Positions 1-40,132 of a stretch of 64,000 nt of DNA are shown piece by piece. The stretch is taken from contig JAUWCJ010000001.1 in NCBI GenBank assembly GCA_030609365.1, positions 1,266 to 65,265 of the forward strand, in the 5' to 3' direction. The notes beneath the pieces are model-generated. The model ran no database searches. It was not told the origin of the DNA and saw nothing but the letters and a program-made list of their open reading frames with translations. Position numbers and translations under genes: made by a program. Position 1 is the stretch's first letter. Each line of letters starts with the position of its first letter. The DNA is from Candidatus Eiseniibacteriota bacterium. Lineage in GTDB: Bacteria; Joyebacterota; Joyebacteria; Joyebacterales; Joyebacteraceae.

Positions 1-941
1 CGAATATCGCCCCCATCAGAGCGCTCACGGGAGTTCTTTCCAGCACAGGACTCCGCGCACTTCTGTCTAGAGTGCGTGCTTTTGGACCGGACGTCGTCGT
101 TTGCTCCTACATATGGGCCGCCCCCATCGTTTCCCGCATCAAGGAACTCGGCATCCCGGTCGTCTACGACTGCAACGACCTCCACACGGAGTTCTACCCT
201 GCCTGCCCGGATGCCGCGGAGCGCGTCTTCCGGGATCTCGTCGCCGGCGCCACGGAGGTCGTATCGTCGTCCGAGCGCCTGCAAGAGGTGTGCGGGCGGG
301 GGACGGTCGTGGGGAACGGGGTAGATCTGGGAATCTTCACGGGGAAACGCGAGGGACCGCTCCCGGCGCTCATCGCTAAGAGCCCGGTCGGTGACTGCGC
401 TCAGCTGGTCGCCTACGTGGGGTCGGTCGACGGCCGGATCGACTTCGACGTTCTGGAAGCTCTGGCGGGGGCGCTGTCCGATCTACAGACGAGGACGGGT
501 GTCGTGTGCATCGGGAGGGTGTTCGAGGGAGCCAGGGCGAAGGCAGAGGCTCTCGTCGGGAAGCACCCGGAGCACATTGCCTTCACGGGCCGCGTTCCCT
601 ATGAGGAGCTGCCTGCGTACCTCTCTCACGCCGCGGTCGGGATCGCACCGTTCGTACTGGACGAGAGAACGCGGGCAATCAACCCGAACAAGCTCTACAT
701 GTACGCGGCGATGGAACAGAACATCGTGTCGACCCCCTTCTCGGCGGACATCAGGGAGCATGAGGACCTCATCTTCATCGCCGACGGTCCAGACTCCTTC
801 GCATCGGCCGTCAAACAAGCGCTCGGTGACGAGGAACGCCGCCGAGCGGTGAGAGATCGTATCGCCGTCCCCAACAGCTGGGACGAGAAGACACGGGCGT
901 TTCTGAGAGTGCTTGCCCGTATAGCAAGCGGGGGACGCTAG
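1..941 (+). CDS. Glycosyltransferase family 1 (GT4-type), 5'-truncated at window edge
   Basis: The reading frame is open from nt 3 with no upstream stop, so the gene starts outside the window. Translation shows GT-B C-terminal Rossmann-like motifs (..AYVGSVDGRIDFDVL.., ..GIAPFVLDERTRAINPNKLYMYAAME..) typical of group 1 glycosyltransferases. Confidence 0.6.
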   Translation, partial: NIAPIRALTGVLSSTGLRALLSRVRAFGPDVVVCSYIWAAPIVSRIKELGIPVVYDCNDLHTEFYPACPDAAERVFRDLVAGATEVVSSSERLQEVCGRGTVVGNGVDLGIFTGKREGPLPALIAKSPVGDCAQLVAYVGSVDGRIDFDVLEALAGALSDLQTRTGVVCIGRVFEGARAKAEALVGKHPEHIAFTGRVPYEELPAYLSHAAVGIAPFVLDERTRAINPNKLYMYAAMEQNIVSTPFSADIREHEDLIFIADGPDSFASAVKQALGDEERRRAVRDRIAVPNSWDEKTRAFLRVLARIASGGR

Positions 942-27413: not shown

Positions 27414-27680
27414 TTCGACCGGCCCCGGCCGCTGCTCACGCGATGGGGTCGTTCAAAGCGCCAGCTGCCTGTCAGAGCCGCGTCAGCGCGGTCGGTCGGT
27501 ACGAAAACCAGTCACCGCAACGTCAGCGGTCGGCGCGGCGGTGACATGTCGGTTGGATACTCTACTATGGAGCGCGCCACGAGTCAACCGCTTTCGGCCG
27601 CAAAACCCCACGAAAACGGCACATTTCTGCCCGAACAGCCGTGGACCACGCTCGTCCGCACGGCAGCCCGGAGGCGGGCA

Positions 27681-27709
27681 TCGACAGCACGATGGCCGCG
27701 CTGTATAAT
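27681..27709 (+). promoter_or_regulatory. Sigma-70-like promoter TCGACA-17-TATAAT for the beta-helix secreted protein gene
   Basis: -35 TCGACA at 27681-27686, a 17-nt spacer and a perfect -10 TATAAT at 27704-27709. RBS AAGGAGAGGAGG is at 27717-27728 and the ATG at 27737. Confidence 0.5.
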
Positions 27710-27736
27710 TTTAGCAAGGAGAGGAGGCGTGTCACG

Positions 27737-28798
27737 ATGCGAATGAGACTGCAGTGTTGTGCATTGCTTCTGCTTGCCACCCTGCCGGCCGCCGTCTGTG
27801 CCGGAGTCATCGTCGTCGACCCCGTGGGTGGCGGCGACTACGACAACATACCCGAGGCCATGTTCCACGGTACGGCTGACGACACGGTGCTCGTGTTGCC
27901 GGGCTTCTACGAGGTGGAGACGGGCATTCCTTACCCGTGGCCCATCCTCCTGACGGCCGACAGCCCCGCGCTCGTCAGCCAGGGAGGTGCTGCGCTGACG
28001 CTCATTTTCGGCAACGGTCTGATGCCGGCCCTCGACGTACGGGACGATACGTTCGGCGCGCGGGCCTTCATAGCAGGATTCACGTTCCAGTGGCTGGAGA
28101 CGCCGCTGGACTGGGGCTATCCGACGAGCGGGACCGTCTACTTCACGGACAACATCGTGAAGGGGTGCGAGACGGGAGTGGACGTCCGCATGGGTGAAGG
28201 GCTGGTCGCCAGAAACCTTATCGAGGGACCGGGCACCTACGGGATCCAGACCGGGCACTTCGAGGGCGTGATAGAGGACAACGAGGTGCACGGGTTCAAG
28301 GACGGCATCACGGGCGCGGACGGGAACACGGTGATACAGCGAAACCACATCCACGACAACGGGATCAGCGGTGTGGCGGGGTTCAACGACTGCATCGCCA
28401 TCGACAATGTCGTTGAGGACAACGGCTGGGCCGGGTTCAGCATCTCGTTCGACGCCCACCTGACGGGCAACGTCATCCGTGGCAACGGCACGGGCATCAA
28501 CTTCTGGGGTGGACCGCACAACGGGTTCCTGAACGGGAACGACATCTACGACAACGCGGAGTTCGCCGTGCACTCATACTGCGAAGAGCACATCCCCGTC
28601 CCGCCCGACTTCGACGCCACCATGAACTGGTGGGGTACAACCGACCCGGACGAAATCGCGGCGAGCATCGACGACTGCCACGACAGCATGTGGTCGGCCG
28701 TATGTTTCGTCGTCGAGCCGTGGTGCACGGCGCCCGGGTGCGACCCCACGCCCGCCGAGCTGTCGAGCTGGGGCGCGATCAAGGCTCTGTATAGATGA
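27737..28798 (+). CDS. Secreted right-handed parallel beta-helix repeat protein ending in SWGAIKALYR tag
   Basis: The start at MRMRLQCCALLLLATLPAAVCAG (signal peptide) is preferred to the longer ORF start at 27641. Repeated N-x-I-x-x-N / GxxG beta-helix turns run from NIVKGCETGVDV to GNDIYDNAEF, with an NWWGTTDPDEIAASIDD motif. The extreme C-terminus is ELSSWGAIKALYR. Confidence 0.6.
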   Translation: MRMRLQCCALLLLATLPAAVCAGVIVVDPVGGGDYDNIPEAMFHGTADDTVLVLPGFYEVETGIPYPWPILLTADSPALVSQGGAALTLIFGNGLMPALDVRDDTFGARAFIAGFTFQWLETPLDWGYPTSGTVYFTDNIVKGCETGVDVRMGEGLVARNLIEGPGTYGIQTGHFEGVIEDNEVHGFKDGITGADGNTVIQRNHIHDNGISGVAGFNDCIAIDNVVEDNGWAGFSISFDAHLTGNVIRGNGTGINFWGGPHNGFLNGNDIYDNAEFAVHSYCEEHIPVPPDFDATMNWWGTTDPDEIAASIDDCHDSMWSAVCFVVEPWCTAPGCDPTPAELSSWGAIKALYR

Positions 28799-29864: not shown

Positions 29865-30650
29865 ATGGGCGAACTCGAGGTCAGGGAACTCAGGTCCGGC
29901 GAGGAATCACTATGGCTCGGGTCTGATGCGGAAGGCGGGCCCGGTGCGGACGGCGAATCCGAGAAGCTCACCAAGTTCCGCCGCTTGTTCGAGGAGCGGT
30001 CCTCGCAGGACCCCCGCTCGTTTCTCGTGGCACTCGACGGGCCACGCGCCGCCGGGCGACTGAAGGGACTCTTCCTCAGCGACAAGCTCTACTTCGTCCA
30101 GGAACTCCACTGCGCGGAGGGTCTCCCCTGCAGCGTGGTCGAGGACGCGCTTGCGAGCTTCCTCGGTGACTCGTTCTCGCGCGACGGCATCGGGATCCTG
30201 AGCTGGGACCGGACGAAGAGCGCGGAGACCAACGCCGCGCTCGAGCGCGCGGGGCTTCTGATCGAGAAGAAGAAGGTGTTCGTTGCTCGCGGCCTGAAGG
30301 GTGACCTCCCCCGGCCCGGGACGCACTTCGCGTTCCGGACGCTTGCAGAGGCCGGGAAGGACGAGTTCCTGCCCGTGATGACGGAGGCCGCGGCTACGGG
30401 CGGGCCCTGCACGCCTCGGGGCTTTCGATGCTCGCTGAGCGCGGCGTCACACGGTACGTGGGCTCCACCGACACGCGGAACGGCCCGATGCTCAAGGTCT
30501 TCGAAGCGAACGGATGCCCGCAGACCGGCATACAGCGCTTCTACAAGCCCCCCGCCCGGTAGCGGCGGCGCACCGGACCGATTCTCGTTCGCGGTAGCAG
30601 CGGCAGTGTGCCCGATTCTCCTTTTGACTGCAGGCAAGCTCTCCCTATAG
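29865..30650 (+). CDS. GNAT-like acetyltransferase candidate, probably frameshifted near 30400-30430
   Basis: The first ~180 aa read as a protein (..ALERAGLLIEKKKVFVARGL..). After ~30420 the called frame becomes low-complexity. The +2 frame gives a clean GNAT-like C-terminus ..LAERGVTRYVGSTDTRNGPMLKVFEANGCPQTGIQRFYKPPAR* ending at 30562. Confidence 0.35.
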   Translation: MGELEVRELRSGEESLWLGSDAEGGPGADGESEKLTKFRRLFEERSSQDPRSFLVALDGPRAAGRLKGLFLSDKLYFVQELHCAEGLPCSVVEDALASFLGDSFSRDGIGILSWDRTKSAETNAALERAGLLIEKKKVFVARGLKGDLPRPGTHFAFRTLAEAGKDEFLPVMTEAAATGGPCTPRGFRCSLSAASHGTWAPPTRGTARCSRSSKRTDARRPAYSASTSPPPGSGGAPDRFSFAVAAAVCPILLLTAGKLSL

Positions 30651-30702
30651 AGTCATCTCTACGTATAGTCATCTCCATCATGGAGTCGTCTTCACTGACG
30701 AC
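30624..30702 (+). promoter_or_regulatory. Promoter-like TTGACT-16-TATAGA plus operator-like repeats upstream of the XDH-family operon
   Basis: -35 TTGACT at 30624-30629 and -10 TATAGA at 30646-30651. Direct repeats TATAGAGTCATCTC (30646-30659) and TATAGTCATCTCC (30664-30676). Palindrome TCCATCATGGA (30674-30684). Inverted repeat GTCGTC-N6-GACGAC (30685-30702). The region is AT-rich for this genome. Confidence 0.4.
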
Positions 30703-30739
30703 ATCCTGTCCTCCGGAGAACCGCTCCCGACGAGGTGAA

Positions 30740-33085
30740 ATGAGCAAGCGAGAGATTCAGGATGGTCCGCCCGAGAGGGACCGCACCGCGGCGGTCGGCG
30801 CGCCGGTCAAGCGCGTTGACGCGTCCGACAAGGTCACCGGACGGGCCGTCTATCTGGACGACATGGTCATGCCCGGCGTCCTGCACGCCGCGCTGGTCTT
30901 CCCCGGGTGCGCCCACGCGGTGCTCAGAGGGGTGGACGCGTCGGCCGCGAGGTCGATGGCTGGCGTGCGTTCCGTCCTGACAGCCGACGACATCCCCGGA
31001 GAGAATCAGGTCGGCGTCATCGATACCGATCAGCCGCTTCTTCCCTTCGACAGGATAAGATACGAAGGAGACGCCGTGGCCGTCGTTGTGGCCGAGACGG
31101 CGGTGCTGGCACGCGAGGCGGCGGACGCCGTGTCCGTCGACCTGACGGAACTGCCGGGCGTCTTCGACGCCGTCCGTGCGATGGAGCCGGACGCGCCGCT
31201 CGTTCACGAGAGCGGGAACGTTTTCCTCCACGACAAGGTCAGGAAGGGCGATGTCGACGCCGGGTTCGATGCGGCCGACATCATAGTGGAGCGCGAGTTC
31301 CGCACCCACCACCAGGAACACTGCTACCTCGAGCCTCTGGCGGCGCTCGCTGTACCTGCGGACAACGGGTCGATGACGGTCTACGGGACGATGCAGTGCC
31401 CGTTCTACGTGCAGAAGGCCGTGGCCGATGTGCTGGGGCTTCCACTCGCATCCGTCCGCGTCATCCAGACCGTCACGGGCGGTGGGTTCGGTGGGAAGGA
31501 GGATGTACCCAGCGAGATTTGTGCGTGCGCGGCGCTCGCCGCGTGGAAGACGGGAAGCGCGGTCAAGCTCGTCTACTCCCGGGAAGAGGATTTCCTCCGC
31601 TCGAGCAAGCGCCATCCCATGCGCGTGACGTTCAAGCTGGGCGCCAAGCGCGACGGCACGTTCACGGCCGCGAAGATTCGCGCGGTCGCGGATGGCGGAG
31701 CCTACACGACACTGTCCCCGGTCGTCGTGTTCCGCGCGGCCGCGCACGCGACGGGCCCCTACGAGATCCCGAATGTCTGGACAGACGTCTACGGCGTCTA
31801 CACCAACCGCCAGACGGCGGGCGCATTCAGGGGGTTCGGGCAACCTCAGGTCATCTTCGCCAACGAATCGGTCATAGACGAGGTGGCCGACGCCATCGGG
31901 ATGGACCCCGTGGACATCCGTCTCAAGAACTGCCTGGACGTCGGGAAGCGGACGGCGACGAACCAGCTTCTGACAGAGAGCGTGGGGCTGAGAGAGACGC
32001 TTGAACTCGCACGGGAGCTCTCGGGATGGGACGGGAAGCGGGCGGCGCAGGGAGGACGCGGCGGCGAACAACCGGGACGCGCATCGGACGCTCGCGACCA
32101 CATCAAGCGCGGCATCGGGGTCGGGTCCATCTATTACGGTGTCAGCCTGGGCGCGAAGGGACTGGCGCTCGACGGGTCCGGCGCCCACATCAACGTCTAC
32201 CGCGACGGCTCGGTCAGGATCGGCGTGGGCGGCACAGAGATGGGACAGGGCCTCCTGACCGTACTCGCACAGATCGCGGCCGACAGTCTCGGCGTGCCGG
32301 TCGGCTTCGTTCACGTCGAACGCGCGGACACGAGCGTCGTCCCGGACAGCGGCCCGAGCGTCGCTTCGCGGACCACACTCATGACTGGAAACGCCGTGAT
32401 CGACGCCGCGCGGAAGCTTAGGACCGTCATGGGAGAGGTCGCGGCCGACAGTCTGGGGCTCGACCCGAGCGAGATCGAGTTCGATGGTGGTACCGTCGGT
32501 TCAGCAGAGAAGAACGTGACCTTCGCGGAGCTCGCCGAGCAGTGTTGGGTGAGAAACGTCAGCACGGCCGCCGACGGCTGGTACGCCGCACCCGAGTCCA
32601 CGTTCGACGAGAACGGCCAGGGTGACGCCTACGCCGTCTACTCGTACGCGACACACGTAGCGGAGATTGAAGTGGACACGGAGACCGGACGGGTAACGGT
32701 CGTGAGGATCACGGCCGCGCACGACGTCGGGCGAGTGATGAACCCCGTGACGCTCGAGGGGCAGATAGAGGGAGGCGTGCTGCAGGGCATCGGGATGGCG
32801 CTCTACGAGCAGATGAAGAGCAAGGGCGGAGCGGTCGTGACGCCGGACTTCTCCACCTACATCATCCCCACGGCGATGGACACGCCGGCGATCCGGACCG
32901 TGTTCGTCGAGGATCCCTATTCGAAAGGTCCCTTCGGCGCGAAGGGCATCGGCGAGACTCCGGCCATGCCGGGAGCCGTTGCCGTGGCGAATGCCGTGTC
33001 CAATGCGCTCGGCGTGCGATTCCACGAGCTGCCCCTGACCCCTGAGCGCGTCAGGCGGGCGGTGTCTGAGAGGAAGAATTCATGA
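30740..33085 (+). CDS. Xanthine dehydrogenase/aldehyde oxidase family molybdopterin-binding subunit (orphan large subunit)
   Basis: The start at MSKREIQ.. (RBS GAGGTGA 5 nt upstream) is preferred over the ORF start at 30608. Ald_Xan_dh hammerhead and MoCo-binding domain motifs are present (..KRVDASDKVTGRAVYLDDM.., ..QTVTGGGFGGKED.., ..GVSLGAKG.., ..IEGGVLQGIGMALYE..). It has no signal/Tat motif, no N-terminal 2Fe-2S domain and no adjacent small or FAD subunit genes. Confidence 0.85.
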   Translation: MSKREIQDGPPERDRTAAVGAPVKRVDASDKVTGRAVYLDDMVMPGVLHAALVFPGCAHAVLRGVDASAARSMAGVRSVLTADDIPGENQVGVIDTDQPLLPFDRIRYEGDAVAVVVAETAVLAREAADAVSVDLTELPGVFDAVRAMEPDAPLVHESGNVFLHDKVRKGDVDAGFDAADIIVEREFRTHHQEHCYLEPLAALAVPADNGSMTVYGTMQCPFYVQKAVADVLGLPLASVRVIQTVTGGGFGGKEDVPSEICACAALAAWKTGSAVKLVYSREEDFLRSSKRHPMRVTFKLGAKRDGTFTAAKIRAVADGGAYTTLSPVVVFRAAAHATGPYEIPNVWTDVYGVYTNRQTAGAFRGFGQPQVIFANESVIDEVADAIGMDPVDIRLKNCLDVGKRTATNQLLTESVGLRETLELARELSGWDGKRAAQGGRGGEQPGRASDARDHIKRGIGVGSIYYGVSLGAKGLALDGSGAHINVYRDGSVRIGVGGTEMGQGLLTVLAQIAADSLGVPVGFVHVERADTSVVPDSGPSVASRTTLMTGNAVIDAARKLRTVMGEVAADSLGLDPSEIEFDGGTVGSAEKNVTFAELAEQCWVRNVSTAADGWYAAPESTFDENGQGDAYAVYSYATHVAEIEVDTETGRVTVVRITAAHDVGRVMNPVTLEGQIEGGVLQGIGMALYEQMKSKGGAVVTPDFSTYIIPTAMDTPAIRTVFVEDPYSKGPFGAKGIGETPAMPGAVAVANAVSNALGVRFHELPLTPERVRRAVSERKNS

Positions 33086-35082
33086 GATGCCACGCAGGAC
33101 CGTCCGCACCGTTGCTGACGCTCCTCATGCTCGCCGTGGCGCTCGCTGCCGCGACCGCCACGGCGAGCGAGTCTCCGGATGCAGGAAACCATGGCAGCGC
33201 CGAGTACCTGCCCATGCGAGATTCGTCCAAGCTCCTCGCTGCCTCGCCGTCCGCCGGCGTGATGGAGGAGGCTCTGCGAGCTCTCGCCCTCACGCGTGAC
33301 GACCTCTCGTTCCGGACGGACTACGCCGACCAGCCGGATTCGTTCCGGATAGCCGTGGTCGACCGGCTGCTCGCGCGCCCTCTCGAGACGGAGAGCTACG
33401 TCGCAGGGTTCGCGGATGAGATCTGCGCCATCGCCTCTCTGGAGGGACTCGTGGGCATCTGCGCCCGCGACCTCGATCTGATCATCGATGAACCGACGCG
33501 CGTCGAACCAACGGAGCCCATGGAACCCAAGTCGATCGGACCGACCGCGCTCGATGTGCTGCTGCCCGCGATGAGTGAGGCCGCGGGGCTGATCGCCACG
33601 GCGTTCGATGGCCTGTCGGAGGAGCAGCGGCGGTTCGTGGCGCTTCACGCGCCGTCGATCCTGGACGAGGAAGAGTTCGACCCGGACCGGCCGATCGACG
33701 AACGGGACCGCGAGGCCGAGGAGGAAGAGGCGCTCGCGGACGAGCTCCTCCGCATTGCCAGTCTCGTTGACTACGATCGTCTGGCGGCCGCGGGCGCCGT
33801 GATAGCGCGAGCGGTTGACAGCTCCATCCCGCTCCTGGTGGACGACCCGATGAACCTCCCGAGAACGCATACCGACTACGAGCTCGAGAGGACGGCTTCC
33901 TCGTGGCTGGCCTCGGGCGACGTCCTGAACATCATGGAGACAGAGGCAGGGACCGTGATCATCGGGGGGCCGGGACGTACCACATATAGAGGGGGCGTCG
34001 CGCTCATCATCGATGTCGGCGGCGACGACGTATACGTGGGCGACGTGGCAGCGGCCCTGAGGGATCTTCCCGTGTCCATCGTGATAGACCTCTCCGGCGA
34101 CGACATCTACCGCGGTGACACGCACTCGCTGGGCGCGGGGTTCATGGGTGTAGGCGTGCTCGCGGATCTCGAGGGTGACGATGTTTACACCGCAGGAGAC
34201 TTCTCGCTGGGTGCGGGTCTGTTCGGGGTCGGGATTCTGGTGGACGCAGCGGGCAACGACAGCTACTCGGGCGACACGTGCACCGAGGGCGCCGGCGCGT
34301 TCGGCATCGGAGTCCACCGGGACAAGGGCGGCAACGACAGCTATAACGCCGCGCTCTTCTCGCAGGCTTTCGGGTTCGTCGGAGGCGCGGGGCTGCTGCA
34401 CGATGTGGCAGGGAACGACGTCTACTTCGCTGGAGGGAAGTACACCGACGAGATACGGTACTTCGACCACTACATCAGCCTCTCACAAGGATTCGGGTTC
34501 GGCTGGCGGCCCGACGCCTCCGGTGGCATCGGGATCCTCATCGACGAGGCCGGGAACGATGTCTACGTCTCCGATATATTCGGCCAGGGTTCAAGCTACT
34601 GGTTCGCGGTCGGGGGGCTGGTCGACTACAGCGGGAACGACCAGTACGTCTCCTACCAGTACGCCCAGGGCGCGGGCACTCACATCACGGTCGCCGCACT
34701 GATCGACTGCGACGGCGATGACAACTACGTGTCGAAGGGCGTGTCGCAGGGGTGTGGCCACGATCTTGCCGTAGGCATCCTGCACGACCTGGCCGGTGAC
34801 GACAGCTACACCTGCCACGACCTCTCCCAGGCCGCCGGAAACGCCAACGGCATCGGGATCCTGATGGACGACGCGGGCAACGACGCGTACTCGGTCCGGA
34901 ACCCGAACAACACACACGGGTATGGGAACCTCCGGCGCGACTATGGGAGCATCGGCGTCTTCCTGGACTGCGGTGGCGCCGACTCCTACTCCGGCAGAGG
35001 AGCGGACGGCACGTGGTGGACCGGGAGCATGCACGGCATCGGGGTCGATGAGGAGAAGGCGTTGGGAGGTGGTGCTGAATGA
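33082..35082 (+). CDS. Secreted protein with ~12 tandem ~26-aa GxGxhxDxxGNDxY repeats (predicted beta-helix/beta-roll-like)
   Basis: Signal peptide MRCHAGPSAPLLTLLMLAVALAAATATA. Residues ~305-655 are repeats such as VSIVIDLSGDDIYRGDTHSLGAGFMG, VGVLADLEGDDVYTAGDFSLGAGLFG and VGILVDAAGNDSYSGDTCTEGAGAFG. The start overlaps the XDH stop (ATGA). Confidence 0.6.
   Translation: MRCHAGPSAPLLTLLMLAVALAAATATASESPDAGNHGSAEYLPMRDSSKLLAASPSAGVMEEALRALALTRDDLSFRTDYADQPDSFRIAVVDRLLARPLETESYVAGFADEICAIASLEGLVGICARDLDLIIDEPTRVEPTEPMEPKSIGPTALDVLLPAMSEAAGLIATAFDGLSEEQRRFVALHAPSILDEEEFDPDRPIDERDREAEEEEALADELLRIASLVDYDRLAAAGAVIARAVDSSIPLLVDDPMNLPRTHTDYELERTASSWLASGDVLNIMETEAGTVIIGGPGRTTYRGGVALIIDVGGDDVYVGDVAAALRDLPVSIVIDLSGDDIYRGDTHSLGAGFMGVGVLADLEGDDVYTAGDFSLGAGLFGVGILVDAAGNDSYSGDTCTEGAGAFGIGVHRDKGGNDSYNAALFSQAFGFVGGAGLLHDVAGNDVYFAGGKYTDEIRYFDHYISLSQGFGFGWRPDASGGIGILIDEAGNDVYVSDIFGQGSSYWFAVGGLVDYSGNDQYVSYQYAQGAGTHITVAALIDCDGDDNYVSKGVSQGCGHDLAVGILHDLAGDDSYTCHDLSQAAGNANGIGILMDDAGNDAYSVRNPNNTHGYGNLRRDYGSIGVFLDCGGADSYSGRGADGTWWTGSMHGIGVDEEKALGGGAE
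33994..35050 (+). repeat. In-frame tandem repeat array (about 12 units of ~78 nt) encoding the GNDxY repeats
   Basis: The periodicity is visible in the translation: each unit is hydrophobic-G-h-L-h-D-x-x-G-(N/D)-D-x-Y followed by a Gly-rich linker. The units have diverged at the nucleotide level, so they are not recent duplicates. Confidence 0.5.
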
Positions 35083-36110
35083 GAACCTTCGGTACTGTCC
35101 TTCTTCTGCTCGTTCTGATGGCCGGACCCGCCGTCTCCCAGAATGTGGGTGCGGAGGTTGAGACGGAGGTCGCTGAGTCCGACACGGCCGAGCTCGCGGA
35201 GCTCACGCCCGTGGAGCTGTTTCTGCGGGCGTCCTCGTCGGCGCTCCAGTTCGAGCACATGCGCGAGCCGTCCCGGTGCATCCTGGTATCGAACCACGAG
35301 GAGTCGCTCCCCTATCTCGTCACCCGGCTCGACACGGACGACGCGAGGGAGCGGCACGCGCTGGAGGACATCCTTGTCAGGATCGGCACCGCGGCCGCCG
35401 ATCCGGTCATAGAGGCGTTCCTGTTCGAGGCCGGGAGAACGGAGACAACTCGCGGCGCCAGGCTGGCGGCGGCGGTGCTGGGCAAAATCGGTGATGCCCG
35501 CGCCGTGGGCCCGCTCGCCTCCGTCCACGACCATCACGACTGGAAGGTGCGCGGGGCCATCGGCGGAGCGCTCGGCAGGATCGGCACGGCCGAGACGGTT
35601 CATCCTCTAGTTTCACTTCTCCTGGACGAGAACGAGGCGGTCAGGAAGAGCGCGGCCGTCGGTCTGAGGCGCGTCGCCGTACGCGCCCGTGACGACGAGG
35701 CGCCGGACCACGACGCGGCCAAGGCCCTCGACGCGGACGTCATCGAATCGCTCGCGCGTGCCCTCGGGGATCCCAGCTACGCGGTGAGATACAGCTCGGC
35801 CGATGCGCTTGCCCGCATAGGTGAGACGGCGCTGCCGCTCCTGTTTGAGATCGGTGAGGGCGGGGCGGCCGAGGCTCGATTGATGGCGCTTCGGGCCGCC
35901 GGCAAAGTCGGCTCTCGTAGGGCTCTCAAGCCGCTGGTGAGAGCGCTCAAGGACTCCGACTGGGCGGTGCGGGCGCACGCCGCAGCCGCCATCGGAACGA
36001 TCGGAGCAGACAAGCGGAGCCGTCGAGCGCTGGAGCGTCTGGTCGCTTCCGACCCCCATCCGTTCGTCGTCGCATCGGCCGCCGCCGCACTCGACTCGGA
36101 AGACCGCTAG
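35079..36110 (+). CDS. Secreted HEAT-repeat protein (PBS-lyase HEAT-like repeats)
   Basis: Signal peptide MRTFGTVLLLLVLMAGPAVSQ. Repeated ~30-aa units carry ..D/E..VR..A..ALG.IG... (e.g. DWKVRGAIGGALGRIG, NEAVRKSAAVGLRRVA, SYAVRYSSADALARIG, DWAVRAHAAAAIGTIG). The start overlaps the upstream stop (ATGA). Confidence 0.65.
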   Translation: MRTFGTVLLLLVLMAGPAVSQNVGAEVETEVAESDTAELAELTPVELFLRASSSALQFEHMREPSRCILVSNHEESLPYLVTRLDTDDARERHALEDILVRIGTAAADPVIEAFLFEAGRTETTRGARLAAAVLGKIGDARAVGPLASVHDHHDWKVRGAIGGALGRIGTAETVHPLVSLLLDENEAVRKSAAVGLRRVAVRARDDEAPDHDAAKALDADVIESLARALGDPSYAVRYSSADALARIGETALPLLFEIGEGGAAEARLMALRAAGKVGSRRALKPLVRALKDSDWAVRAHAAAAIGTIGADKRSRRALERLVASDPHPFVVASAAAALDSEDR

Positions 36111-38182: not shown

Positions 38183-38742
38183 TGGACCTCCATCTCTGAG
38201 GTGCGCTCACGGCCTCATAACAGCGCTTCGTCAAGATTATTTGCGCTCGTCCACTCGCGTGCGGAGCGAACGCAGAACCTATCCTAGCGGAAACAGGCCG
38301 CGACACAAAGCAAGCATGCCAAGCCCGACGCCCTGCGTAGACGGCGTCAAAGCGACATTACGGCGATATGGGGCAATTGGCCTGAATCCCTCGCACACCG
38401 CATCGAGACAGGAAAACACCGTCTGACTTCCTGCTCAACTTGTCTCAACATGTGCGCTTTGTACGAAAAACTCATTGACCCGGAGGCGGGGATGCTATAG
38501 ACTACTAGTCGAACTACGGGAGATTATCACCAAGCACATGCGAGCGTGATTGTGTGTCGCCTGGGCTCACACGAGTTCAGGTGGCAAGTGTGTGCAGGTG
38601 CCGAGTCGGGGGCCGGCATCTTCACCGTGCATCCGCGTCGACTGATGATGCAGCAGTGCTTGGTGGTGAAGCAACATCTGGCTACTGGTCAATTCGAAGT
38701 GAAGCAGAGAGTAACTCACAAGAAGGAAAGGAGACGGACGGC

Positions 38743-39405
38743 ATGAAAAGGCTAACGTTTGCAGCTGTTGTGCTGGCGTTCGCGCTCCTCGTTGTGCAGA
38801 CCGCCGCGGCCGACGATTCGTACATGATCGGCATGCAGGGAGTCGGCAGCCTGATGAAGAGTCCCGTTGTCTACAGCGGGAGCTTCATGTGGGGTCTCGT
38901 TGGTTCGTGGGAGATCACGCTCGACGACTCCATGTGGCCCGGCGAGGCAGACAGCACCGCGAGGTTCGACTACATATGGGACAACTTCTTCGCCGACCAC
39001 TACATCGACACGACGGGTGCGGAGAGCTGGACCGGTTACTTCGATGGCGCGACACTGATGGCGGCTCCGCGCTTCCGGTTTGACACCATCTCTCCGGTAG
39101 GCGCGATCGAGGGCGACATCACCTTCTCGATTCTCGTGCGCGACTGGTACGCGGACGGGATACTGTCGCAGCAGGAAAAGCATCACAACCTGAACCTGAG
39201 TGCGACGCTCAGTCTGAATCCGAGCCTCGGCGAGGGCTATTTCGAGAATATGTGCGGGCACGGTTCGGTCAGCTCGGGCAACTTCAACTTCCATAACCCA
39301 CCGCTGGACGACAACCTGCAGATAGTCGGACAGATCCAGACCTACACTTGCCCCAGCCCGGTGGAAGAGACGACCTGGGGCGCGATGAAGGCGCTGTTCA
39401 GGTAG
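38743..39405 (+). CDS. Secreted protein, paralog 1 of a tandem pair, ending in TWGAMKALFR tag
   Basis: The start at MKRLTFAAVVLAFALLVVQTAAADD (RBS AGGAAAGGAG) is preferred to the ORF start at 38554. It shares SPVVYSGS.., GSWEITLDD..WP, YIWDN and GYFDG with the downstream paralog. The C-terminus is EETTWGAMKALFR. Confidence 0.55.
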   Translation: MKRLTFAAVVLAFALLVVQTAAADDSYMIGMQGVGSLMKSPVVYSGSFMWGLVGSWEITLDDSMWPGEADSTARFDYIWDNFFADHYIDTTGAESWTGYFDGATLMAAPRFRFDTISPVGAIEGDITFSILVRDWYADGILSQQEKHHNLNLSATLSLNPSLGEGYFENMCGHGSVSSGNFNFHNPPLDDNLQIVGQIQTYTCPSPVEETTWGAMKALFR

Positions 39406-39484: not shown

Positions 39485-40132
39485 ATGCGCGCACTTCTGA
39501 TAGTTTTGGCTGTTGCGGCCCTTGCAACTGCGGCCTACGGCCAGGAGACGTTTGTTTGGTTCTACGGCGCGGGAACGGGCGACTTCATGGACAGCCCCGT
39601 GGTCTTCGGCGGCGCCATGGATCCCGGCGGTGACATAGAGCTCGGATCGTGGTCAATCACGATCCCGGACGACGGTTGGCCCACTGACCCGGTCGACCGG
39701 TCCACCTACATCTGGAACACGTACTACGCGCCGAACTACACACCCGGCAACCCGAGCTTCTGGAAGGGCTACTTCGACACAGAGCACGGTGCACCCGACA
39801 TGAACGCTCTGTTGATCGTCGACGACACGAACGGCGGCGTCATGACCGGTATCTGCTCCGTTGAGATCCAGGTTCAGGATCTGAACAACAACGGCGTGCT
39901 CGACGAGGGCGAGTTCTGCAGCGGCAGCCTTTCCGGTCTCGTCATCATCATCCGGGACGGCACGGGCGTGTACGACGGCATGTGCGGAACGGGCAACTAC
40001 TTCGGCAGCTACATCAAGGACTGCCCGCTCACGACCGAGACCTGGAACTTCGGTATGTATCTCTGGCTCGAGGACTGCACCACGCCGGTCGAGGACGCGA
40101 CCTGGGGCGCCATCAAGGCCCTGTATCAGTAG
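39485..40132 (+). CDS. Secreted protein, paralog 2 of a tandem pair, ending in TWGAIKALYQ tag
   Basis: Signal peptide MRALLIVLAVAALATAAYG. Motifs SPVVFGGA.., GSWSITIPDDGWP, YIWNT and GYFDT match the upstream paralog. The C-terminus is EDATWGAIKALYQ. Confidence 0.6.
   Translation: MRALLIVLAVAALATAAYGQETFVWFYGAGTGDFMDSPVVFGGAMDPGGDIELGSWSITIPDDGWPTDPVDRSTYIWNTYYAPNYTPGNPSFWKGYFDTEHGAPDMNALLIVDDTNGGVMTGICSVEIQVQDLNNNGVLDEGEFCSGSLSGLVIIIRDGTGVYDGMCGTGNYFGSYIKDCPLTTETWNFGMYLWLEDCTTPVEDATWGAIKALYQ

Follow-up and report, generated by a model that had tools for sequence, protein, structure and literature searches.

The intergenic region analysed here lies on the forward strand of a 64-kb stretch of DNA from Candidatus Eiseniibacteriota (64,000 nucleotides, hereafter the window), where it separates the remains of a GNAT acetyltransferase gene from a transcription unit of three genes that are found in the same order in loci L160–L170 and in which adjacent genes overlap by 4 nt (Table 1). 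The product of the first is a Mo-binding subunit of the xanthine-dehydrogenase family. Its best NCBIfam match, to NF043082, reaches 570 bits where 780 are required, and all 13 of its NCBIfam matches fall below the equivalog cut-offs that would identify it as XdhA, PucD or XdhB. Moreover, no adjacent genes for [2Fe–2S] or FAD subunits are present, the downstream genes being one without a Pfam match and one with HEAT repeats, while a regular-expression search for Fe–S and FAD subunit motifs in the six-frame translations of the window returned nothing, which is a weak negative. The name "XDH operon" used in the first-pass annotation is thus misleading, since the genes for a single Mo-binding subunit, a secreted repeat protein and a HEAT-repeat protein do not make up an operon of the xdhABC type.

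The left border of the region is a pseudogene. A tblastn search with the L160 ortholog, which is intact and 314 aa long, recovers residues 1–187 in one frame and residues 257–314 in another, residues 188–256 being missing, and Pfam detects no domain in the GNAT ORF of the window but Acetyltransf_1 in its orthologs. An older tandem duplication of about 35 nt, absent from the first-pass annotation, occupies positions 30557–30625, its second copy abutting the −35 element described below; it is also found in L001, L016, L160–165 and L172.

Table 1. Features of the intergenic region and of the operon downstream, in window coordinates.
Feature	Position	Strand	Basis
GNAT acetyltransferase pseudogene, left border of the intergenic region, TAG stop 30560–30562	29865–30562	+	tblastn
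Older ~35-nt tandem duplication, CGGTAGCGGCGGC...CCGATTCTCGTT / CGGTAGCAGCGGC...CCGATTCTCCTT	30557–30591 / 30592–30625	+	repeat families, spacing 34–35
Conserved −35 block, GATTCTCCTTTTGACTGC	30614–30631	+	invariant or near-invariant columns in ortholog alignment A1
−10 hexamer, TAGAGT	30648–30653	+	promoter scan; 18 nt after −35
Repeat copy 1, TAGAGTCATCTCTACG: −10, discriminator, probable start site	30648–30663	+	consensus search, ortholog census
Repeat copy 2, TATAGTCATCTCCATCA: intact −10-like hexamer TATAGT	30664–30680	+	repeat search, consensus search, census
Palindrome CTCCAT-C-ATGGAG at the copy 2/copy 3 junction	30673–30685	.	inverted-repeat listing
Repeat copy 3, TGGAGTCGTCTTCAC: degenerate hexamer (A2 to G)	30681–30695	+	consensus search, census
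Inverted repeat GTCGTC-N6-GACGAC	30685–30702	.	window and L159 only
Conserved start-site-proximal element, CACTGACGACA (consensus CACTGACCACA)	30693–30703	+	ortholog identity
Distal leader, not conserved	30704–30731	+	29–39% identity to 1-copy relatives
Shine–Dalgarno GAGGTGA (30732–30738) and start codon ATG 30740	30732–30742	+	ortholog conservation
Three-gene transcription unit served by the promoter	30740–36110	+	ORFs, domain searches; same order in L160–L170
Mo-binding subunit, xanthine-dehydrogenase family	30740–33085	+	Pfam family-level domains
Secreted GNDxY-repeat protein, 666 aa	33082–35082	+	no Pfam match
HEAT-repeat protein	35079–36110	+	Pfam

The right border depends on the start codon of the Mo gene, for which two positions had been considered, and the choice of ATG 30740 over GTG 30608 made in the first-pass annotation holds. 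This ATG is kept in all 16 sequences compared, preceded by a Shine–Dalgarno sequence in the form GAGGTG or GGAG. It is true that the frame stays open from 30608 to 33085 and that a further ATG, at 30680, is in frame with ATG 30740, as would be expected if 30608–30739 encoded an N-terminal extension of the Mo enzyme. However, the orthologs differ by indels of 16, 17 and 33 nt that destroy any frame upstream of 30740, neither GTG 30608 nor ATG 30680 has a Shine–Dalgarno sequence, the homologs of the Mo protein (768–788 aa) align from residue 1, and the Pfam and NCBIfam domains start at residues 19–33 counted from ATG 30740. A coding function of this region can therefore be set aside almost with certainty.

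As had been claimed, the leader is AT-rich relative to its surroundings (G+C content of 48% in the core, 30620–30710, versus 64% in the whole window) and contains a promoter, a site of the sigma-70 type kept in 31 orthologous loci. The −35 hexamer, TTGACT (30624–30629), matches the consensus at five of six positions and is invariant in the ortholog alignment; the block containing it occurs once in the window and is kept with either GNAT or TudS as the upstream gene. The −10 hexamer had been read as TATAGA (30646–30651), at a spacing of 16 nt. Although this string is present, it lies 2 nt too far upstream, the true −10 being TAGAGT at 18 nt; TATAGA is excluded by L156, which reads TTTAGAGT, and by the 17-nt spacer of L079. 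TAGAGT serves as the first-copy −10 in 20 of 21 distinct orthologous sequences, matches TATAAT at four of six positions including the key A2 and T6, and recurs in more distant orthologs as TTGACT-17-TAGAGT. A promoter scan found two sites in 1.5 kb against 0.1 expected, the best being TTGACT-18-TAGAGT, and the extended string TTGACT-N17/18-TAGAGTC is present once in each of the 31 Eisenbacteria loci, always upstream of the Mo gene, and the other 143 loci fetched lack it. In the window, six sites fit the broader pattern TTGACN-16..19-TANNNT (1.1 expected), each with a long ORF starting downstream on the same strand, and this appears to be a promoter type used by this organism. Three other candidates were rejected or not found in the region: an ECF-type promoter built on the CGTC motifs lacks, as judged by eye, an AAC-type −35 at the right distance, a 14-bp near-palindrome over the −35 (TTGACTGCAGGCAA) is not kept in L012, L003 and L079, and a scan for intrinsic terminators or attenuators gave none.

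Comparison with relatives that carry a single copy of the −10 region distinguishes the constrained from the drifting parts of this leader. The promoter block is 70–86% identical to these relatives, versus 46–57% at four-fold synonymous sites, and the hexamers are constrained relative to neutral sites. By ortholog comparison, purifying selection acts on the −35 block ATTCTCCTTTTGACTGC, the −10 TAGAGT (30648–30653) and the 11-nt element CACTGACCACA, which is identical at 8–10 of its 11 positions in 1-copy relatives whose synonymous sites are 46–57% identical; the leader outside these three elements drifts at or below the synonymous-site rate. Among the fetched loci, CACTGACCACA is found upstream of this Mo gene only. 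Nevertheless, the promoter is dispensable to the Mo gene, since it is missing from some relatives: a deletion removed it from L002, and GNAT abuts the Mo gene in L082, L085 and L087.

Transcription probably starts near A30661, as this position lies at the usual distance of 7–8 nt after the −10 and within a conserved CAC that fits the Y-R-Y start-site motif (PMC7876045). The leader would then measure about 79 nt and end in the Shine–Dalgarno sequence GAGGTGA followed by ATG 30740. Counted from such a start, CACTGACCACA would span roughly +33 to +43 in the window, against roughly +1 to +11 in relatives with a single copy. The discriminator and CACTGACCACA are constrained beyond the strict needs of a minimal promoter, so that an additional factor or a role at the RNA level may be involved there.

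A module of 16–17 nt, made up of the −10, the discriminator and the start site, is present in three head-to-tail copies. The unit consensus derived from the orthologs has only three matches in the 64 kb, all adjacent (30648–30662, 30664–30678 and 30681–30695). Direct repeats overlapping the −10 had already been described, and both TATAGAGTCATCTC (30646–30659) and TATAGTCATCTCC (30664–30676) are indeed present, but the copies number three rather than two. The orthologous loci have one, two or three copies, with the promoter hexamers kept and the downstream units decaying. The distance from the −10 to the start codon grows in step, the leader after the −10 measuring 46–54 nt with one copy (8 sequences), 69–71 nt with two (10 sequences) and 86–87 nt with three (the window, L159 and L172). 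In the alignment, whose gaps span 17 and 33 columns, copy 2 of the window falls in the 17-column gap of the 2-copy orthologs, and copy 3 corresponds by homology to the second copy of the 2-copy relatives and to the third of L172. The hexamers of downstream copies often read TAGAGC, CAGAGT, CAGAAT, AGGAGC or TGGAGT.

Because the 3-copy state recurs in independent assemblies (L159 and L172), it is not an assembly artefact. Chance statistics are less telling, since 1.3% of shuffles and 5.8% of window tiles equal or surpass the 12-nt direct repeat; it is the indel pattern of the orthologs, together with the consensus search, that demonstrates the repeat. Tandem Repeats Finder, at a minimum score of 30, called no array, the copies being too short and too diverged for it. 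Copy number does not simply track the gene tree, as the coding region of the window is nearer to 2-copy L016 and its upstream region nearer to 3-copy L172, which cannot be explained without gain, loss or recombination. Regarding the sample, a metagenome scan contributed only about 10 more Eisenbacteria loci, most extra orthologs coming from exact-protein look-ups, and a scan of viral contigs with the single-copy consensus gave no matches.

Both symmetric elements noticed earlier are real as strings, yet neither is conserved. The perfect palindrome TCCATCATGGA (30674–30684) has an odd length, with 5+1+5 nt around a central C, and extends to 30673–30685. It lies at the junction of copies 2 and 3, creates the in-frame ATG 30680, which has no Shine–Dalgarno sequence, and is confined to 3-copy strains, being absent from 1- and 2-copy orthologs; L172 reads CTCCA-CCTA-TGGAG at this junction. 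The inverted repeat GTCGTC-N6-GACGAC is likewise present, but the orthologs read GTCGTyyCCACTGACCAC, with GACCAC in place of GACGAC and hence a mismatch in the stem, and the symmetry apparently stems from a C-to-G change inside the conserved CACTGACCACA. The region is not enriched over chance in inverted repeats with arms of 5 or 6 bp (p ~0.07–0.11 against shuffles, with 15–17% of window tiles equalling the region). The density of symmetric elements, which had been taken as a control signal, thus comes down to lineage-specific products of a junction and a point mutation at chance level. A long-range inverted repeat (CGATTCTCC / GGAGAACCG) was also rejected, because the first arm precedes the probable start and the second varies among orthologs.

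These observations bear directly on the two regulatory readings proposed in the first-pass annotation. Control of the operon by a repressor or activator bound to repeated AGTCrTCTCC units, or to palindromes over the −10 and the start site, would be in line with several observations: the discriminator and CACTGACCACA are conserved beyond the level of synonymous sites; a repressor bound to these elements would stand in the way of RNA polymerase; the −35 contains TGACT, which is paired with an AGTCA after the −10 in an invariant inverted repeat of 5 bp; and the true xdh operons of Streptomyces are repressed by the TetR-family regulator XdhR (PMC6627660). However, close relatives have from one to three units, the downstream ones decaying; sites spaced 16–17 bp apart would face opposite sides of the helix; the TGACT/AGTCA pair falls on the promoter hexamers themselves; neither palindrome is conserved, and the conserved 11-mer has no dyad partner. 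No dyad-symmetric site of the kind expected of a TetR- or XdhR-like operator is kept in the orthologous promoters. No second occurrence of the motifs turned up in the window or in the fetched flanking DNA, which amounts to about 1.5 Mb: searched with the −35 block, the repeat unit, AGTCATCTC and CACTGACCACA, the window and all fetched loci gave the site itself or chance-level matches. Furthermore, no gene for a DNA-binding protein is adjacent at any of the 16 loci with gene calls, which bears out the earlier statement that no regulator gene is adjacent; the neighbours are NosD-like, TudS/DUF1722, thioredoxin-domain, GNAT, repeat and HEAT proteins, none of them an adjacent or divergent regulator. 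An operator array is consequently unlikely. Still less can be said for a structured regulatory leader, be it a riboswitch, a thermosensor or a hairpin sequestering the Shine–Dalgarno sequence through the palindromes and the anti-SD-like UCAUCUC repeats. UCAUCUC can pair, as read from the sequence, with GAGGUGA, one G–U pair included, and the fragment 30655–30760 folds at z = −1.8, but this borderline value is gone once the leader is taken from the probable start. The leader is no more stable than shuffled sequence, z-scores of the leaders of 14 orthologs taken in this way ranging from −0.5 to +1.4. A covariance search of 30300–31000 against Rfam gave nothing at E ≤ 10, and RNAalifold on the orthologs predicted no leader pairs, no compensatory changes and no GTCGTC/GACGAC hairpin. 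Moreover, 1-copy relatives have only about 40–48 nt of leader, and its distal part is unconserved. The structured-leader reading is thus largely refuted, and the chance that it is right is very slight.

A third reading gives the extra copies a role in early elongation, in that sigma still attached to RNA polymerase would re-engage a −10-like hexamer within the first ~10–40 nt and cause a promoter-proximal pause, the number and integrity of the transcribed hexamers tuning output. This idea builds on the ordinary-promoter explanation and does not exclude it. [quoted passage not shown] In the window, the hexamer of copy 2, TATAGT (30664–30669), keeps A2 and T6 on the non-template strand and would lie at about +4 to +9 of the transcript; the extra-copy hexamer is TAGAGT in L016, L165 and L172. 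In most relatives, however, this hexamer is degenerate: most 2-copy relatives have lost A2 or T6 in the second one (TAGAGC in four, in addition to AGGAGC), which argues that a pause element is not being maintained and, if anything, is being removed. The pausing reading is hence improbable, and the same doubt attaches to the wider proposal that the module is a cassette of variable copy number tuning the Mo-enzyme operon, either through pausing or through the shift of CACTGACCACA by 16 or 33 nt from the start. If such a cassette did exist, copies would be gained and lost by Eisenbacteria strains as an adaptation and not neutrally, and the shifted CACTGACCACA could be a site for a factor or an RNA-end site.

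The explanation that we consider probable is an ordinary, strongly conserved promoter of the sigma-70/sigma-A type with a short leader, serving the three-gene Mo operon and carrying a tandem duplication of variable copy number. RNA polymerase holoenzyme would recognise TTGACT (30624–30629) and TAGAGT (30648–30653), 18 bp apart, and start transcription near A30661, giving the leader of about 79 nt. The copies of the 16–17-nt module would have arisen through tandem duplication, presumably of the slipped-strand type. The first copy would be the working one, as it has the only workable distance to the −35 and the only hexamer intact across lineages, and the downstream copies would be transcribed as decaying extra leader with little or no function. 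One palindrome would then be the junction of copies 2 and 3, and the other the outcome of a point change in CACTGACCACA.

Several known systems provide a frame for this explanation. The canonical sigma-70/sigma-A promoter (−35 TTGACA, 17 ± 1 bp, −10 TATAAT) is resembled in the 5/6 match of the −35, A2 and T6 of the −10, the spacer of 17–18 bp, the Y-R-Y at the expected start and the conserved position some 80 nt before an ATG with a Shine–Dalgarno sequence. It differs in the 4/6 match of TAGAGT, the conserved ATTCTCCTT directly upstream of the −35, the conserved CACTGACCACA at the start and the tandem repetition of the −10/discriminator/start module. Slipped-strand mispairing is associated with short tandem promoter repeats of variable copy number, as in phase-variable loci. 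The present copies share with those repeats the head-to-tail order, the whole-unit differences and the nearby deletions bounded by microhomology (L015), whereas the unit of 16–17 nt and the mere one to three diverged copies set them apart from hypermutable tracts of homopolymer or short units, and nothing points to on/off switching by the copies. The pause elements of lambda PR' and E. coli G1d (PMC7876045, PMC9191641) also place a second −10-like hexamer in the first ~10 nt; here, however, it derives from the duplicated −10 of the promoter itself and is not maintained across relatives, and any pausing is putative. Finally, XdhR, of the TetR family, controls xdhABC in Streptomyces and Agrobacterium (PMC6627660), and the likeness lies in the xanthine-dehydrogenase family of the target gene, while the present locus, in a different phylum, has no xdhR-like neighbour, palindromic operator or xdhABC subunit set.

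The region reveals no new regulatory mechanism, and its main use is the correction of the annotation, by which the start codon of the Mo enzyme is fixed and the "XDH operon" label is replaced. To our knowledge, Candidatus Eisenbacteria is a phylum without cultured members or mapped promoters, and the comparison provides it with a well-supported putative promoter consensus, TTGACy, 17–18 bp, TAnnnT, of which the window has five further examples. Moreover, the series of one, two and three copies would be a natural example of the duplication of a core-promoter module followed by the decay of redundant −10 elements, and it advises caution, since dense repeats and palindromes beside a promoter can be by-products of duplication.

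The gene for a Mo-binding subunit of the xanthine-dehydrogenase family (Mo gene) is preceded by a conserved sigma-70-type promoter, whose -10, discriminator, and start site form a tandem repeat of variable copy number; at the sequence level, the element matches the definitions of both a sigma-70-type promoter and a short tandem duplication. The source is Candidatus Eisenbacteria-like, its nearest proteins and loci all coming from Eisenbacteria MAGs. Upstream regions were gathered from 16 Eisenbacteria loci of species-representative genomes, about 10 from metagenomes, and 16 via exact-protein look-ups, and 16 non-identical sequences were aligned (A1). Three islands are conserved in A1, namely ATTCTCCTTTTGACTGC, TCTCCyTATAGAGTCGT, and CACTGACCACA, together with the Shine–Dalgarno sequence (SD) and the ATG, and the gaps are clean (17 and 33 columns). 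The first-pass annotation had read TTGACT, 16 nt, and TATAGA as promoter-like hexamers; these strings are present on reading 30200-31000 and a promoter here stands, whereas TATAGA does not hold as the -10. The promoter scan preferred TAGAGT at 18-nt spacing, the invariant hexamer across orthologs is T-A-(G)-A-G-T, the relatives L156 and L079 have TTTAGAGT in the -10 region and a 17-nt spacer, respectively, and distant orthologs (65–74% protein identity) have TTGACT-17-TAGAGTCGG. Therefore, TATAGA is ruled out and the -10 is TAGAGT. The exact TTGACT-N17/18-TAGAGTC occurs once in each of 31 Eisenbacteria loci, always immediately 5' of the Mo gene, and in 0 of 143 other fetched loci.

Constraint was assessed as identity of the window to single-copy relatives, which is 46–57% at four-fold synonymous sites of the Mo gene, 29–39% in the distal leader, and 70–86% in the promoter block, with 8–10 of 11 positions identical in CACTGACCACA. 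Selection therefore acts on the promoter and this start-site-proximal 11-mer and spares the remaining leader. In the whole window, TTGACN-16..19-TANNNT occurs six times against 1.1 expected (six were reached in 1 of 100 shuffles), each site having a same-strand long ORF that starts downstream. Judging from such motifs, the organism evidently uses canonical sigma-70-type promoters.

Coordinates of features in the window
Feature	Position	Remark
GNAT acetyltransferase pseudogene	29865-30562	
Tandem duplication, ~35 nt	30557-30591 / 30592-30625	found by repeat search
Low-G+C core	30620-30710	48% G+C (window, 64%)
-35 TTGACT	30624-30629	
TATAGA	30646-30651	rejected as -10
Direct repeat TATAGAGTCATCTC	30646-30659	
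Direct repeat TATAGTCATCTCC	30664-30676	
Repeat units, copies 1, 2, 3	30648, 30664, 30681 (starts)	
Palindrome TCCATCATGGA	30674-30684	odd-length, 5+1+5
Extended palindrome CTCCAT-C-ATGGAG	30673-30685	
GTCGTC-N6-GACGAC	30685-30702	
SD GAGGTGA	30732-30738	
Mo gene	30740-33085	781 aa; ATG start
Secreted-protein gene	33082-35082	666 aa; 4-nt overlap with Mo gene
HEAT-repeat gene	35079-36110	4-nt overlap with secreted-protein gene
Further promoter candidates, TTGACy-16/17-TAnnnT	10511, 38475, 48715 (+); 27587, 4054 (-)	
Predicted secreted proteins sharing a C-terminal motif	27641-28798, 38554-39405, 39485-40132	

The preference of the first-pass annotation for the ATG at 30740 over the ORF caller's GTG at 30608 is borne out by several lines of evidence that exclude the GTG. 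All 16 aligned sequences keep the SD and the ATG, the GTG frame traverses the promoter and upstream frames are broken by 16-, 17-, and 33-nt indels among orthologs, homologs of 768–788 aa align from residue 1, and domain models start at residues 19–33 of the ATG product. Another ATG, at 30680, was created at a repeat junction, lacks an SD, and was also rejected.

Both direct repeats are present as quoted in that annotation. With dinucleotide shuffles and tiles of the same window as chance controls, a 12-nt direct repeat is modestly unusual (reached by 1.3% of shuffles and 5.8% of tiles). The unit, with the consensus TAGAGTCGTCTCCAC in single-copy relatives, contains the -10 hexamer, a 6–7-nt discriminator, and CAC at the expected transcription start; at ≤3 mismatches, the 64-kb window holds only three matches, which are adjacent. 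In a census of 21 sequences, one copy goes with a leader of 46–54 nt after the -10 (L012/L168, L003, L014, L079, L080, L156, L170, and L174), two copies with 69–71 nt (L001, L165, L015, L016/L160-164, L166, L167, L169, L171, and L173), and three with 86–87 nt (the window, L159, and L172). Since L159 is an independent assembly, identical to the window over the repeat and different upstream, and L172 is a diverged three-copy locus, an assembly error is excluded. In 20 of the 21 sequences, copy 1 has TAGAGT as its hexamer, and downstream hexamers are often damaged at critical positions (TAGAGC in four sequences, CAGAGT, CAGAAT, AGGAGC, and TGGAGT), as expected if the -10 function rests on copy 1 alone, no other copy being suitably spaced from the -35. 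Copy numbers do not simply follow the gene tree: across 30441-33116, most of the window Mo gene is closer to two-copy L016, whereas the 150-nt stretch preceding the promoter is closer to three-copy L172 (92% vs 83% for L016). Loss, regain, or recombination must therefore have occurred, and this mosaic similarity suggests either recombination near the promoter or repeated copy gain and loss.

The holoenzyme would recognize TTGACT and the first TAGAGT, and transcription would start near A30661, 7–8 nt past the -10, in a Y-R-Y context such as that described for E. coli (PMC7876045). Copies 2 and 3 would then be transcribed as 33 additional leader nucleotides, the duplications probably arising from slipped-strand mispairing and being neutral or nearly so. 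As a secondary possibility, a transcribed -10-like hexamer could cause sigma-dependent promoter-proximal pausing of the kind known from E. coli and from lambda PR' (PMC7876045, PMC9191641); an intact hexamer does lie at about +4 to +9 in the window (TATAGT) and in L016, L165, and L172 (TAGAGT), but it has decayed in most relatives, which argues against maintenance by selection, and it is improbable that copy number acts as an expression or pausing dial. The strong conservation of the discriminator and CACTGACCACA, in turn, may have to do with the choice of start site or with promoter escape; it could also mark an element that stabilizes the 5' end, or a factor site that is not palindromic.

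Control by an operator or a structured 5' UTR had also been proposed. Both palindromes are present as quoted, and inverted repeats with 5- or 6-bp arms are not unusual (p ~0.07–0.11 against dinucleotide shuffles, equalled in 15–17% of window tiles). CTCCAT-C-ATGGAG straddles the boundary of copies 2 and 3, joining the unit end CTCCA to a mutated next-unit start, TGGAG; the same junction in L172 reads CTCCA-CCTA-TGGAG, and one- and two-copy relatives have nothing comparable. The ortholog counterpart of GTCGTC-N6-GACGAC is GTCGTyyCCACTGACCAC, and a single C-to-G change within CACTGACCACA completes the stem only in the window and L159. Thus, the orthologous upstream regions contain no conserved dyad, and the element does not qualify as a conserved palindromic operator of the TetR/XdhR kind (PMC6627660). 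The leader likewise does not resemble an Rfam cis-regulatory RNA, with no match even at E ≤ 10. RNAalifold predicted no pair within it, solely pairing the invariant -35 TGACT with AGTCA after the -10, without covariation; its folding energy from the inferred start to CDS +20 is no better than shuffles in 14 of 14 orthologs (z -0.5 to +1.4), and in one-copy relatives it is only about 40–48 nt long. These results lend no support to a riboswitch or to a conserved, structured leader. A distant clade (~72% protein identity; L004:5874-5893, L005, L007, L011, and L013) keeps TTGACT-17-TAGAGTCGG with a different leader, which opens with a conserved hairpin, GGCCTCTC-TCCG-GAGGGGCC (8-bp stem, UCCG loop), that could be a 5' stabilizing stem-loop.

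Further slippage or deletion scars are found in the neighbourhood. Compared with an intact 314-aa ortholog, the upstream GNAT gene has lost residues 188–256 and its N- and C-terminal remnants lie in different frames, hence the spurious ORF extending to 30650 in the ORF list. L160-L165, L167, and L170 carry an intact GNAT gene, whereas L166, L169, and L002 have none. In L082, L085, and L087 (70–72% identity), the GNAT stop directly adjoins the Mo gene's SD and start, with no promoter in between; the pairing is therefore old, and it may reflect a functional link. The second, older duplication (~35 nt) takes in the stop codon of GNAT as well as the CCGATTCTCsTT block immediately 5' of the -35, and is common to L001, L016, L160-165, and L172. 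In L015:1168-1190, the GNAT 3' end and intergenic DNA were deleted between two GTGCCCG microhomologies, and L002:5780-6000 has lost the promoter entirely, together with the end of a TudS-like gene, repeated GGCACAGGGA motifs remaining before the SD.

The label "XDH operon" was an over-reading. The Mo protein carries Ald_Xan_dh_C, MoCoBD_1, and MoCoBD_2 domains and reaches no NCBIfam equivalog at its curated cut-off (best XdhA, 570 vs 780 bits); a regex search, a weak negative, found no [2Fe-2S] or FAD subunit signatures anywhere in the window, and the downstream genes encode a secreted protein and a HEAT-repeat protein, so that the locus is not of the xdhABC type. Through the 4-nt overlaps, the Mo gene is translationally coupled to the secreted-protein gene, whose product has about nine GNDxY/GDDxY repeats and matches neither Pfam nor NCBIfam, and then to the HEAT-repeat gene; synteny of the three genes extends across Eisenbacteria loci. 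Three other predicted secreted proteins end in a common motif, (S/T)WGA(I/M)KAL(Y/F)(R/Q), which matches no NCBIfam sorting-signal model and may be a C-terminal tag, specific to the lineage, for sorting or anchoring.

Overall, the strings noted in the first-pass annotation are real and their reading as operator or structured leader is unsupported; the element is an ordinary, well-conserved promoter with a lineage-specific triplication. Its value lies mainly in annotation, in that the start codon and operon description are corrected, the GNAT pseudogene is recognized, and a promoter consensus becomes available for an uncultured phylum, the Mo promoter and the five extra candidate sites forming a first set of promoters for this Eisenbacteria genome.
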